A stretch of 64,000 bases of DNA from a virus (Duplodnaviria > Caudoviricetes), in the IMG/VR virus record IMGVR_UViG_3300025314_000006; one strand, 5' to 3'. Both the position numbers and the translations under genes were made by a program. A model generated the notes under the pieces. It was not told where the DNA came from, did no database searches, and saw nothing but the letters and a program-made list of their open reading frames with translations. Of this stretch, positions 2,483-24,269 are shown in pieces (within the stretch, counting starts at the first letter, position 1; each line of letters begins with the position of its first letter).

Positions 2483-2754
2483 AAAAGTAAAATCCTAAGT
2501 ATAGCCGCGATTTTGTTCTATCTCATCATTTATCTGAAGGTATTGCTACCAACTGGAGACTTTAAACGTCTACCACGCACCTACCCGACTATCAACAACG
2601 TAAAGGTTCCCCGTCTACAGTCTGTTTGGCTTGCATCCTATGTTGCGGAAGTACATACGCTATTTGTTATAGCTTCTTCCTCCTTTTAAAAGATGTCGCG
2701 AACTTCCTCTCGATTTTAAGAATCGAGCGATGAGTCCTTCAGGATTTTACTTTT
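2483..2754 (-). ncRNA. rnpB: RNase P RNA (catalytic subunit) with minimised specificity domain
   Basis: 14-bp P1 (AAAAGTAAAATCCT/AGGATTTTACTTTT); P2 CTCATC/GATGAG; P3 CTCGATT/AATCGAG; CR-I GAGGAAGTTCGCGAC pairing (P4) with CR-V ACAAAATCGCGGCTATA; CR-IV AGATAAATGAT; P18-like GGTA-GCAA-TACC. Confidence 0.85.
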
Positions 2755-3034: not shown

Positions 3035-3046
3035 ATTATTTTTTAA

Positions 3047-3355
3047 AAAAGTAAGACGCCATTTCGCTGATAGCGTTTTTTGTGTTCTGTTTAATGCGCC
3101 AAAGAACATCTGATTATGTTCAGCATTTAGCGTTCATGCTTGGTTATTATAACATACTAACATTCCTAATATTGTCTGATTACCTATTTTGAGTTTGCAT
3201 AGTAGGTTGATTTTTATTTCCAGGGTAAAAATCAACAAACAAACCTAACGTCTGATAAACTTTATTTTTCATCCGGTAAACGTTTTGTACATTGTTTAGT
3301 TCATTAGGCTAAAACAACACGTCTTTTTCACGGACAACATTAGTAACTTACTTTT
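3047..3355 (-). ncRNA. Unassigned structured RNA (~309 nt) between tRNA-Ile and tRNA-Asp
   Basis: 9-bp closing stem AAAAGTAAG/CTTACTTTT; 11-bp hairpin at 3206-3236; several smaller hairpins; four ATCAG motifs; no ORF in the track. Confidence 0.55.
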
Positions 3356-3359
3356 CTTG

Positions 3360-3788: not shown

Positions 3789-4736
3789 TTATTCTAATAA
3801 TAATTCATCAATTGTTAAAATTGAATTTAAATTATCTATTGTTTTTTTAAATATCATTTTAACATTAATGTTGTTTTGTTCTAATACTAAACTCATTTTT
3901 GTTTTATCTATTATTGAATAATATCCTTTAGTTTCTATGTATAAGTTAAAATTTGGCAAATAAAAATCTGGCACATACGTTTTTTCAACACCTTCTTTAA
4001 TATATTGAATATATATTTTTCTAATCCACAATATTTTATTGTCATTTAACCATTGCGACATTTTTAATTCATATTTTCCTCTTAAAGAATATTCTTCACC
4101 AATAATATTTTTTTGTTTATAAAATTTCACATGTTTAAAATTGTTACTTATTTCATTTTCTTCTAACATCTTGGAGTGAGATTTGCTAATTTTCGATTTT
4201 TGTTCAGAAGAAAGTGGCTTTCCTAATTGGTGATGTATTCTCTTACCAGTAGCATACATTTCTTTTTGTTGCTCAGATGCTTTATTTACCCTATTATCAG
4301 TTTCCTTTGTAAGTCCTCTTGACCATCCCATTTTTGATTTAGTCTCTGCATTACTGTATTTTTTATTTTTATATTCAACTCCATCCGGTGTATGCATTTG
4401 AAATATATGACCACATATACCAAGTTTGTGAAATATTAATTCGCAATGAGGACATTTATATTTATCTACATCAACTTTCCAAGATTCATCTACTGTTATT
4501 TGTTTTTTATTAACTGTATTACATTTATTATAATGCCTTTCAAAATTAGAAACAGAAATATTTTTATTACATTTATCACAACATTTTGTGTTTTTAGGTT
4601 TTCCAAGTAAAGAAATACTTAAATTTTTTAATCTTTCTTTTAACTTTGGATTAGATTCACAATTTACTATATGAGCACCAAATTGTTGTGGGATCTCAAA
4701 CTCAAAAGACTCTTTGCAATGCGGACAAGTTTTCAT
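3789..4736 (-). CDS. Putative homing endonuclease (Zn fingers, NUMOD-like region, PD-(D/E)xK C-terminal domain)
   Basis: CPHC zinc motifs; HHQLGKPLSSEQKSKIS NUMOD3-like stretch; YVPDFYLP...YIETKGY nuclease motif. Confidence 0.75.
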   Translation of the reverse strand: MKTCPHCKESFEFEIPQQFGAHIVNCESNPKLKERLKNLSISLLGKPKNTKCCDKCNKNISVSNFERHYNKCNTVNKKQITVDESWKVDVDKYKCPHCELIFHKLGICGHIFQMHTPDGVEYKNKKYSNAETKSKMGWSRGLTKETDNRVNKASEQQKEMYATGKRIHHQLGKPLSSEQKSKISKSHSKMLEENEISNNFKHVKFYKQKNIIGEEYSLRGKYELKMSQWLNDNKILWIRKIYIQYIKEGVEKTYVPDFYLPNFNLYIETKGYYSIIDKTKMSLVLEQNNINVKMIFKKTIDNLNSILTIDELLLE

Positions 4737-4805
4737 ACTTTTTTATTATAAATAGTATAAAAAATTGCAGGTTAGAAAATTGTTAGCACGTTATTGTTTT
4801 TTGAG

Positions 4806-4888
4806 TGGGAGTTGATGGAGACGAGCCACCCGAGTTTTAAAACAACCGATTTACAGTCGGTCCCGCTACCCCTACGGAATAAACTCCC
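4806..4888 (-). tRNA. tRNA-Tyr(GTA)
   Basis: GGGAGTT/AACTCCC acceptor; CCGA-CT GTA AA-TCGG; long variable arm; T-loop CTCGTCT. Confidence 0.85.
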
Positions 4889-4900
4889 ATTTTAATGTTG

Positions 4901-4972
4901 CACAGACGGTTATAATCGAAATAACTACGTGTAGTTTTTGGAGAACTCACCGACACCAAGCCTGTCGTCTGT
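4901..4972 (-). tRNA. tRNA-Trp(CCA)
   Basis: ACAGACG/CGTCTGT acceptor, G73; loop CT CCA AA. Confidence 0.8.
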
Positions 4973-5011
4973 ATTTTATCTATTTTTTAAGCTGTAAGAT
5001 AATTAGCTAAG

Positions 5012-5083
5012 TAGCGAAAACTGGAATCGAACCAATGTAGACACAGCTTATGAGACTGGTGGGAAACCAACATCCTTTTCGCA
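5012..5083 (-). tRNA. tRNA-Met(CAT), initiator-like
   Basis: Loop CT CAT AA; U1:U72 mismatch typical of initiators, but lacks the three G-C anticodon-stem pairs. Confidence 0.75.
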
Positions 5084-11409: not shown

Positions 11410-11413
11410 ATAG

Positions 11414-11500
11414 TGTACCCAGAAAGATTCGAACTTTCAACGGCCTTTCGGCTCCCCACAGGGTAAAAACCTGTTGCTCTACCAATTGAGCCATGGGTAC
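11414..11500 (-). tRNA. tRNA-Lys(TTT) with a long variable arm
   Basis: GTACCCA/TGGGTAC acceptor; ACAGG-TT TTT AC-CCTGT; 19-nt variable region with a GCC-GAAA-GGC hairpin. Confidence 0.8.
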
Positions 11501-12189: not shown

Positions 12190-12960
12190 TTAAAATACAA
12201 ATTTTAAGACTTTAATATTATTTACTTTTTCACTATATCCAAAATTTCTAATTTCATCATGTATTTCTATGTGACAATTTGCACAAACCATAATACATTT
12301 ATCAACTTCTACTTTTAATCTTTCAAAACCATAAGATTTGCCACCAATAGTAAAATCTTTTTCACTTGGATTTGTATGATGAAATTGTAAAACTGATGTT
12401 GATTTATTATATCCACAACATTCACATTTCCATCCTTTATATTCAATTAATCTAATTTTACTTCTTTTTCTCCAATCTATAACAGCCTGACTTTTGGTTT
12501 TAGTTTTTTGTCTTTTTTTATTTGTTTTAATCAAATCATCAGAAATGTAATTTCTAATTGTTGTCCTATCTACCTTAAAATAAGCGGCTGTTTTTCTTAA
12601 AGACTTACTTTCTATATAAAAATTAACAACTTCTATTTCAATAAGTTCTTTTTTCTTAAATGTACCACTTGATTTATTTAATCCATACAAATTACATATT
12701 TTAATTAACTTATCTTCTCCAATGTCCAAAATTGACCTTATTTCGTCATAGCTTTTCAATTCTCTTCTGTAAGCAATTATTTTGTTTATAACTTCATCAG
12801 TTATTCCAATTAAAAAACTGTTTCTTACTCCGCCAAGTCCAACATTATTTATGTGATAAGACACAGTGCTTTTTGAACACTTTAATTGTTCAACTATTTC
12901 TTTTATAGTTGAGCCTTTTTCTCTTAAAGAGATAATTTTATTTTTCAAACCTTTATCCAT
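12190..12960 (-). CDS. HNH homing endonuclease with N-terminal HTH repeats
   Basis: KCECCGY...LQFHH...CIMVCANCHIEIH; likely start MDKGLK at 12960. Confidence 0.85.
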   Translation of the reverse strand: MDKGLKNKIISLREKGSTIKEIVEQLKCSKSTVSYHINNVGLGGVRNSFLIGITDEVINKIIAYRRELKSYDEIRSILDIGEDKLIKICNLYGLNKSSGTFKKKELIEIEVVNFYIESKSLRKTAAYFKVDRTTIRNYISDDLIKTNKKRQKTKTKSQAVIDWRKRSKIRLIEYKGWKCECCGYNKSTSVLQFHHTNPSEKDFTIGGKSYGFERLKVEVDKCIMVCANCHIEIHDEIRNFGYSEKVNNIKVLKFVF

Positions 12961-13031
12961 ATTATTAACTTTATTTGTTAATAAATATGGGATAAAATTC
13001 AAAAAAACAAAATTTATTTCAAAGAACGTTG

Positions 13032-23405: not shown

Positions 23406-24269
23406 TTATAATTTAGAATATTCCCATTTAAATCCACCAGCAGTATATTTATTATTTTTTAAACATTTTGATATTTGTTTTCTTGAAACATTTAATGTTT
23501 CAAAAGCGTTTTTTATACTTCTAAAACAATTTATAAAAACACCATTTTTATCCAATTGATTTATTTTCTTGGTATTTTTTGGAATATTTCCAATTCTTTT
23601 ATATGGCTCAAAAATAAAATTTTTAATTTCACATTCATAACACCAATAAAAACCTCCGGCACTTTTTCCATTTTTTTTACAACACCTACTTAATGATGAG
23701 TTATTTATTCCTGTTATATATTCAGCCTCTGTTAGTGATTTGAATTTTTGTATTATTTCTCCAGTTTTTATATTAATCTGTATTATCCCTTTAAAAAAAT
23801 TTTCATTTTTCTGACCAAGATGAGATTCTCTTAAATTTTCAATATGAGAATCTGAAAAAATAATTCCTTTTTTATTATCTGACATTAATTTTTTTGTTTC
23901 CTCAGAATGTTTCCTGTTTGTACTTGAAATTGATATTCTCTTTTTTGTTTCTTCGGAGTGTTTAAAATTTATAGCCCCTGTTCCTTTCGCATTTGCATTA
24001 ACAAGTTTAAAACCCCATACTTTAAATTGGCAAATCCAATATTGCTCCCAAAATTCCCAATCATTATTATCTACAATATCTAATATTTCGAAAATTGGAA
24101 ATAATTTCTGTTTCCGCAATGATTTAATCCAATTAACTCTATAACTTCTTCCTTTTTTGTCTTTTTTGTGAGAGCGAAACCTAACCTTTGGATTAATTGT
24201 TTTTCCAACATATCTCACTTGTTGAGTATTGGGGTCAGTCAAAGTGTATATATAACAAAGATTATCCAT
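23406..24269 (-). CDS. GIY-YIG homing endonuclease with NUMOD3/NUMOD1 motifs
   Basis: YIYTL...RYVGKT; KHSEETKK repeats; KSAGGFYW and TAGGFKW. Confidence 0.85.
   Translation of the reverse strand: MDNLCYIYTLTDPNTQQVRYVGKTINPKVRFRSHKKDKKGRSYRVNWIKSLRKQKLFPIFEILDIVDNNDWEFWEQYWICQFKVWGFKLVNANAKGTGAINFKHSEETKKRISISSTNRKHSEETKKLMSDNKKGIIFSDSHIENLRESHLGQKNENFFKGIIQINIKTGEIIQKFKSLTEAEYITGINNSSLSRCCKKNGKSAGGFYWCYECEIKNFIFEPYKRIGNIPKNTKKINQLDKNGVFINCFRSIKNAFETLNVSRKQISKCLKNNKYTAGGFKWEYSKL

Follow-up and report, generated by a model that had tools for sequence, protein, structure and literature searches.

A 272-nt RNA gene was delimited on the minus strand from position 2754 to position 2483 of the window, the window being the whole stretch of 64,000 nucleotides that was analysed. 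Following the helix map drawn on the sequence, the predicted transcript runs from the 5′ strand to the 3′ strand of helix P1, and the gene is placed between a tRNA-Thr and a tRNA-Cys gene of the same strand (Table 1). An earlier note on this DNA had put a phage RNase P RNA at 2483-2754, inside the tRNA operon; the helix map returned the same coordinates and the same surroundings, and the strand, which the note had not given, is the minus strand, as for all tRNAs. No terminator-like site was found between the gene and the flanking tRNAs, and a promoter and terminator scan of the window yielded 17 sites compared to 16.3 expected, which is chance level and delimits no transcription unit.

All tRNA genes of the window are located on the minus strand, 16 being called by ARAGORN and 13 by Rfam at the curated threshold. 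The 3′-terminal CCA is encoded by only two of the 16, tRNA-Asp and tRNA-Gly(UCC). An ordinary tRNA-Lys(UUU) is immediately followed, at 11413-11500 (minus strand), by a tRNA that has the anticodon UUU (Lys) and a long variable arm, which usually only Leu, Ser and Tyr tRNAs possess. Using relaxed thresholds only, four further tRNA-like genes were obtained on the minus strand (4805-4888, 4900-4972, 5011-5083 and 1569-1648), comprising a Tyr-GUA gene with an aberrant T-arm, a Trp-CCA gene, a Met-CAU-like gene and one uncertain case. Many enterobacterial phages have a tRNA-Tyr with 77-83% identity to the Tyr-GUA gene. Homing-endonuclease-like ORFs are found amid the tRNA genes, also on the minus strand, at 1650-2336, 3789-4736, 12190-13002 and 23406-24269; HNH, T7 endonuclease-I domain and HTH/NUMOD1 types are represented, and the tRNA regions of T4 and T5 are similar in this respect.

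The G+C content of the window is ∼30%. Its ORFs include a ribonucleotide reductase, DnaB-like and other helicases, a DNA polymerase A, a UvsX-like recombinase, exonucleases, an endolysin and a T7-type endonuclease I. No cultured phage has a polymerase more than 29% identical to the one encoded here. Origin of the window from a CPR bacterium was considered and rejected, based on these phage hallmark genes and on the near-absence from 185,579 genomes of the motif pair described below. The same DNA was found in groundwater, soil and sediment metagenomes and contigs from 17 studies carry an identical copy of the RNA gene, meaning that the same strain is widespread and nothing more. Contigs from four sequencing runs were identical to the window without variants and are uninformative on expression and natural covariation.

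Structural parts and match to RF00010

Table 1. Flanking tRNA genes and parts of the 272-nt RNA, with positions in the window
Feature	Position	Strand	Sequence or content	Pairing, evidence or remark
tRNA-Thr(UGU)	2758-2830	minus		Directly upstream; 3′ end 3 nt before P1
P1 5′ strand	2737-2754	minus	AAAAGUAAAAUCCUGAAG	Pairs with 2483-2499, ∼17 bp, one bulged G; MFE fold, map
P2 5′ strand	2729-2734	minus	CUCAUC	Pairs with GAUGAG, 2522-2527; in the family both sides change in 6/6 pairs
P3 hairpin	2709-2727	minus	CUCGAUU-CUUAA-AAUCGAG	Rfam alignment, MFE fold, family alignment, map
CR-I (J3/4 and P4 5′ strand)	2696-2708	minus	AGGAAGUUCGCGA, bulged U included	Ungapped on RF00010 GAGGAAAGUCCGGg
P5 5′ strand	2690-2695	minus	CAUCUU	Pairs with AGGAUG, 2634-2639
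P6 pseudoknot 5′ strand	2682-2686	minus	AAAGG	Pairs with CCUUU, 2602-2606, in the P17 loop
S-domain remnant	2647-2680	minus	34 nt	5-bp stem GGAAG/CUUCC around an inner hairpin
J5/15	2631-2633	minus	CAA of GCAA	G-C-A-A invariant in 36/36 aligned members
P15-P16-P17 arm with L15 internal loop	2577-2630	minus		RF00010 alignment; P15, P16 and P17 covary
Extra hairpin between P15 and P18	2555-2573	minus	GUAGAC-GUUUAAA-GUCUCC	Present in part of the family only
P18 hairpin	2539-2550	minus	GGUA-GCAA-UACC	4 bp, GNRA tetraloop; directly 5′ of J18/2
J18/2, P2 3′ strand, J2/4, CR-V and P4 3′ strand	2503-2538	minus	J18/2 UUCAGAUAAAU; CR-V and P4 3′ strand AUAGAACAAAAUCGCGGCU	RF00010 alignment
tRNA-Cys(GCA)	2393-2469	minus		13 nt downstream of P1

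The bacterial type A model of Rfam, RF00010 (RNaseP_bact_a), was aligned to 2486-2747 on the minus strand over its full length (model positions 1-367) with a score of 39.2 bits, corresponding to E-values of 8.8e-11 when 601 nt were searched and 2.1e-9 for 14.5 kb. The Infernal search with Rfam models that the earlier note had proposed as a check thus gave a match, which lies under the RF00010 gathering score of 100 bits and surfaces only when E-value thresholds are applied. At gathering thresholds, the Rfam scan reported no RNase P RNA between tRNA-Thr and tRNA-Cys, and annotation pipelines miss the gene because its score is below the Rfam threshold. In the alignment, ∼140 model positions belonging to the S-domain are deleted. 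Within the RNase P clan (CL00002), RF00010 was the model kept by cmscan as best of the overlapping matches, and not the type-T model RF02357. Folding of the RNA gave an MFE z-score of −4.5, none of 200 shuffled sequences folding equally well.

The catalytic elements that the earlier note had recognised (P1-P5, P18, CR-I, CR-IV and CR-V) were all mapped, from the RF00010 alignment and the helix map. Both CR-I and CR-V are ungapped against their RF00010 counterparts. P4, formed by GAGGAAGUUCGCGA and AAUCGCGGCU, consists of 5 bp, a bulged U and 3 bp, its 3′ side being located at 2503-2510, and has the geometry of E. coli P4; the bulged U corresponds to E. coli U69. The segment from J18/2 onwards is aligned to CuAGAugAAUG...ACAGAAcCCGGCUUA of RF00010, and CR-V with the P4 3′ strand reads UCGCGGCU, directly followed by the 3′ strand of P1. 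The CAA of J5/15 represents the E. coli A248/A249 position, adjoining the cleavage site. In L15, the sequence GGGUA (2582-2586) contains a GGU that varies little or not at all among 36 members of the family described below, and the J5/15 adenosines and P15 with this GGU represent CR-IV; in type A RNAs, the L15 GGU pairs with the 3′-CCA of the tRNA. A pseudoknot P6, in which L17 pairs with a strand 3′ of P5, is a hallmark of type A and not of type B, and the window RNA has it as AAAGG/CCUUU. The position of its P18 is that of P18 in a phage relative (L012, see below), where P18 was aligned by Rfam, and P8, the receptor of the L18 tetraloop, is missing.

Between the strands of P5, ∼50 nt are left in total, made up of one compound stem and the 5′ strand of P6. 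The stem encloses AA, a 5-bp hairpin (GCUAU-AACAA-AUAGC) and a 7-nt bulge (GUAUGUA). A strongly reduced S-domain had been claimed before, as ∼60 nt with two small hairpins; the reduction holds, while the length and the two hairpins are to be replaced by the figures given here. As had also been noted, no L11/12 T-loop module is evident: P7-P11, CR-II, CR-III, J11/12, J12/13 and P12 were not found in the window RNA, CR-II and CR-III remaining unaligned by Rfam. The architecture of the remnant is common to most members of the family, which have a covarying stem and a conserved pair of bulges, GA and GUUNGUA. The stem, the hairpin and the GA and GUAUGUA bulges may descend from P10/11-P12. Judged by alignment and predicted fold, the window RNA is a homologue of bacterial type A RNase P RNA.

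Distribution and covariation of the family

A scan of IMG/VR with a 15-mer of CR-I returned at least 118 loci, in at least 47 of which the full element was recovered by pairing of motifs and a family covariance model (R1, trimmed to the part from P2 to CR-V). The window carries the family features, with CR-I GAGGAAGUUCGCGAC and CR-V AAUCGCGGCUA located in a phage tRNA array and on the strand of its tRNAs. R1 matched the window once, at 2500-2736 (model positions 1-181), with 120.8 bits and an E-value of 5e-32, a score that is partly due to construction as the window sequence is part of the R1 seed alignment. Independent support comes from the RF00010 match, from the tRNA-array context and from a 34-nt match at 94% identity in the cultured, T4-like Stenotrophomonas phage DLP6, extending from J18/2 to CR-V. 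The latter was the single match when the window RNA was compared to 50,697 phage records by blastn. It falls in an unannotated spacer of the DLP6 tRNA cluster, where the homologue (∼105,770-106,020 of KU682439.2) scored 28.5 bits with RF00010 and 129 bits with the family model. The family model also matched a 634-kb uncultured phage and gave no match in three other genomes, one each of T5-like, T4-like and Phapecoctavirus type. Using a consensus-like member as blastn query, only three uncultured huge phages were retrieved from the phage records.

Covariation was evaluated in the family model alignment for 24 pairs of P2, P3, P5, P15, P16 and P17. Paired combinations occupied 95.1% of the cells, compared to 64.7% in shuffles and 34-44% when the structure was slid, and 264 cells carried a double change versus 73 expected. 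P5 covaries as well within this set, one of its pairs occurring as GC (19), AU (9), UA (7) and CG (4). The P6 pairing exists in at least 10 versions, such as AAACC/GGUUU, CUGCU/AGCAG and CCAAGGU/ACCUUGG, and its mean length is 5.08 bp versus 3.88 ± 0.15 bp when loops were swapped among members. The positions that never vary are those of the catalytic core (CR-I, GCAA, GGU, J18/2 and CR-V), the invariance of CR-I being partly a result of selection as CR-I was the search bait. The catalytic nucleotides are still invariant over a family G+C range of 39-64%. In every locus the mini gene lies on the same strand as every tRNA, and in ∼20 loci the core is flanked by tRNAs within 11-22 nt. On the alignment evidence, the helices and the fold of the family are under selection.

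A fuller version was encountered on the IMG/VR contig L012 (176.8 kb, rated complete), which carries a 303-nt RNase P RNA at 837-1139 on the minus strand. With 178.2 bits it exceeds the RF00010 gathering score. Its CR-I and CR-V sequences are the same as those of the mini forms, with which it shares their idiosyncratic P4 sequence. It has P7-P11, CR-II, a short P12, CR-III and P18, lacks only P13/P14, and from its alignment looks like a viral RNase P RNA of full length. As L012 passes Rfam with an S-domain core, phages carry a series of such RNAs, from near-canonical type A down to cores of ∼170 nt, in which the 272-nt RNA of the window is an intermediate-to-small member with P18 kept.

Outside phages, the CR-I...CR-V motif pair with a spacing of 125-155 nt was matched twice among 185,579 prokaryote species, each represented by one genome. 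Both matches are on 2-3-kb contigs packed with tRNA genes, which are probably mis-binned phage fragments: JAAXWV010000224.1, from a Roizmanbacteria MAG, with 13 tRNAs in 3 kb, and JANXME010000285.1, from an Actinomycetes MAG.

Protein partner, tRNA elbows and proposed role

The earlier note had recognised no rnpA gene in the window, and a search with PF00825 (Ribonuclease_P) likewise found none among the 60 window ORFs of 75-230 aa. The same search was empty for DLP6 (complete), for three IMG/VR records at least 98% complete by CheckV and for one partial record; rnpA was detected by it in 10 of 14 control genomes. In the T. maritima holoenzyme-tRNA structure, the RnpA contacts lie in the catalytic domain.

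The tRNA genes of the window are unusual in their T-loops, nine of the 16 ARAGORN tRNAs departing from TTCRA, in agreement with the many non-canonical T-loops mentioned in the earlier note. In four of them, the Asp, Val, Pro and His tRNAs, position 54 is G and position 58 is G or U (GUCAGGA, twice, GUCGGAG and GUCGUAG); in three, Gly and Met among them, U56 is compensated by A19; A54 occurs once (AUCGAUU), and tRNA-Cys is aberrant. Ala, Ile, Lys, Asn and Phe tRNAs belong to the canonical ones. A syntenic relative, L078, shares the U56/A19 deviation of tRNA-Gly(UCC) and the G54/G58 deviation of tRNA-Pro. Since these deviations recur in L078, the genes concerned are maintained tRNA genes. In two other mini-gene loci of IMG/VR with ∼64% G+C (L041 and L114), all 16-18 tRNAs have a UGCGA-type T-loop, with G55 for U55, and a CAGCA-type D-loop replacing the GG motif, suggestive of one phage with its tRNA elbow rewired throughout.

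We put the probability at roughly two in three that the gene encodes a functional phage RNase P RNA, derived from type A, with the whole catalytic domain and a nearly lost S-domain, which acts in the way set out here. The RNA would be transcribed along with the phage tRNAs, its neighbours being tRNA-Thr and tRNA-Cys, and released by their ordinary 3′ and 5′ processing, the long P1 closing its ends. Host RnpA would then be recruited, as is proposed because the phage encodes none as far as searched, and the resulting enzyme would cleave the 5′ leaders of the ∼16-20 pre-tRNAs of the phage. Contacts with the substrate would be confined to the catalytic domain, including the acceptor stem, position −1 at J5/15 and the 3′-CCA at the L15 GGU, so that the elbow formed by T-loop and D-loop would go unread. 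As CCA is encoded by two of the 16 tRNAs only, the GGU contact implies that for most substrates CCA would be added before 5′ cleavage. The likely benefit is extra or host-independent tRNA maturation during infection, and in the phage of the window the RNA may in addition allow its many tRNAs with unusual elbows to be tolerated. Type A RNAs without an S-domain are poor catalysts in vitro, and activity in vivo is not guaranteed. An engineered catalytic domain of the E. coli RNA lacking the S-domain still cleaves, with lower efficiency (PMC5839562).

A specialised role, in which the host enzyme with its S-domain handles deviant phage tRNAs poorly and the phage supplies an elbow-blind RNA for them, is a possibility to which we give rather little weight. 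The co-adaptation of the S-domain to odd T-loops suggested by the earlier note is borne out locally, by the deviants in the window, some of which recur in the L078 orthologues, and by the rewired elbows of L041 and L114, and the link is weak over the family as a whole. Pooled over loci, 64 of 471 tRNAs deviate in the presence of the mini gene (13.6%) versus 3 of 73 in its absence (4.1%; Fisher, p = 0.02). After removal of the window and of L041/L114, the numbers become 35/435 (8.0%) versus 3/73 (4.1%; Fisher, p = 0.34), and a Mann-Whitney comparison per locus (25 versus 4 loci) gives p = 0.15. All these comparisons rely on few controls, i.e. four loci with at least five tRNAs, three of which are from enterobacterial phages; L112, which has a single tRNA and was counted as lacking the gene, probably carries it, with negligible effect. 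Among the 25 mini-gene loci with at least five tRNAs, seven have no deviant T-loop, the median is 7% and most values lie between 0 and 20%. Furthermore, A19-U56 keeps the tertiary pair on which the S-domain stacks. As most family loci are near-canonical, S-domains just as reduced are found alongside wholly canonical tRNA elbows; deviant elbows are not needed for the loss of the S-domain, which may permit them.

Less probable again is a decoy or take-over function, with the mini RNA, inefficient as an enzyme, binding host RnpA and starving or redirecting the host holoenzyme. Such a function would agree with the lack of a detected phage rnpA, with the loss of the S-domain needed for efficient tRNA recognition, and with the established location of the RnpA contacts in the catalytic domain. 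Protein binding, however, would need none of the invariant P4 bulged U, J5/15 GCAA, L15 GGU and P6 pseudoknot, and a block of RNase P would also stop maturation of the 16-20 tRNAs of the phage's own array. Bacterial RNase P cleaves some non-tRNA substrates, recognised mainly via the catalytic domain and CCA, and a putative conserved structured RNA of 324 nt lies nearby, two tRNAs upstream (3035-3358). That phage non-coding RNAs such as this one, or mRNAs, are the main substrates is nevertheless quite improbable, given that linkage to tRNA arrays is the one feature all family members share and that no specific link to another substrate was found. The least credible reading is that of a decaying, non-functional relic of a captured host rnpB whose S-domain is being deleted. 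The score under the Rfam threshold, the large deletions and the fuller version on L012 would fit with decay, whereas helices and pseudoknot covary across dozens of divergent phages around invariant catalytic nucleotides, and position and strand in the tRNA arrays are fixed; the occurrence of the identical gene in 17 studies can be added only as a sign of one widespread strain. A functional, type A-derived RNA that matures phage tRNAs is therefore preferred over these readings.

This preferred reading can be carried further, although we consider the extension doubtful. The catalytic-domain RNA, with host RnpA or an unrecognised phage protein, would provide a private, elbow-blind tRNA maturation, leaving arrays free to rewire their elbows. 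Host enzymes, or defences that target tRNAs, could then act poorly on these tRNAs, which would still be matured efficiently. If true, the altered elbows of nine of the 16 tRNAs in the window and of all 16-18 in L041/L114 would have been rewired by drift or deliberately.

Relation to known RNAs

With E. coli M1 RNA (rnpB) and the RF00010 model, the window RNA has in common P1-P5, the P4 bulged U, CR-I, CR-IV, CR-V, the GCAA of J5/15, P15 with the L15 GGU, P16/P17 with the P6 pseudoknot, P18 with its GNRA loop, and J18/2. It differs in length (272 nt versus a model of 367 positions), in the absence of P7-P9, P13/P14 and the CR-II/CR-III elbow module, and in being viral, located in a tRNA array and without an rnpA partner gene found.

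Other RNase P RNAs are reduced in the same domain. Type-T RNA of the Thermoproteaceae (Pyrobaculum; RF02357), of ∼200 nt and with an S-domain that is nearly absent, is likewise a natural, near-catalytic-domain RNA and shows that such an RNA can work in vivo (PMC13462272, PMC8172020). Type T is of archaeal descent and has Pop5, Rpp30 and L7Ae as partners, whereas the window RNA has the bacterial P15 with L15 GGU and P6. Cellular erosion of the S-domain, similarly resulting in scores under Rfam thresholds, is found in bacteria, Mycoplasma fermentans RNA lacking P12 and CPR RNAs missing P12, P13, P14, P18 or the UGG motif (PMC8172020). Each of these is the sole chromosomal copy of its cell and keeps most of the S-domain, in contrast to the window RNA, which is viral, has kept the GGU and P18, and has lost far more. 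The Eco CP RPR, a C-domain without S-domain that cleaves at reduced efficiency (PMC5839562), is a laboratory construct, while the phage RNAs are natural, conserved and provided with a small, covarying S-remnant.

The RNase P ribozyme is considered universal in cells and organelles. A search of the full-text literature, in which subscription journals are thinly covered, returned no published description of a phage or virus RNase P RNA, and none is given in papers on the DLP6 genome, on mycobacterial tRNAs and ncRNAs or on CPR bacteria. The family would add a ribozyme to the translation-related functions carried by large phages. As a conserved, natural, bacterial-type catalytic-domain RNA, it bears on how small an RNase P RNA can be in vivo and on what the specificity domain is really needed for. 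As a homologue lies unannotated in the cultured phage DLP6, activity, dependence on RnpA and effect on fitness are open to bench work.

Other structured, tRNA-linked RNAs occur in phage tRNA regions, namely theta (HDV-like) ribozymes beside viral tRNAs (PMC10879173) and GOLLD RNA. Theta ribozymes cleave themselves, in cis, at the 3′ ends of tRNAs, whereas RNase P acts in trans at tRNA 5′ ends, and folds and chemistry are unrelated.

In the window itself, a 324-nt spacer without a gene call (3035-3358, minus strand) is located between tRNA-Ile and tRNA-Asp, two tRNAs upstream of the mini gene. It opens with the 12-mer CAAGAAAAGUAA, with which the mini RNase P RNA also begins after tRNA-Thr, and contains a terminal helix (z = −2.4) and a 3′ hairpin followed by a U-run. 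Without a match in Rfam, it is 78% identical to positions 4977-5230 of L078, at the same syntenic position, and may be a second conserved non-coding RNA.
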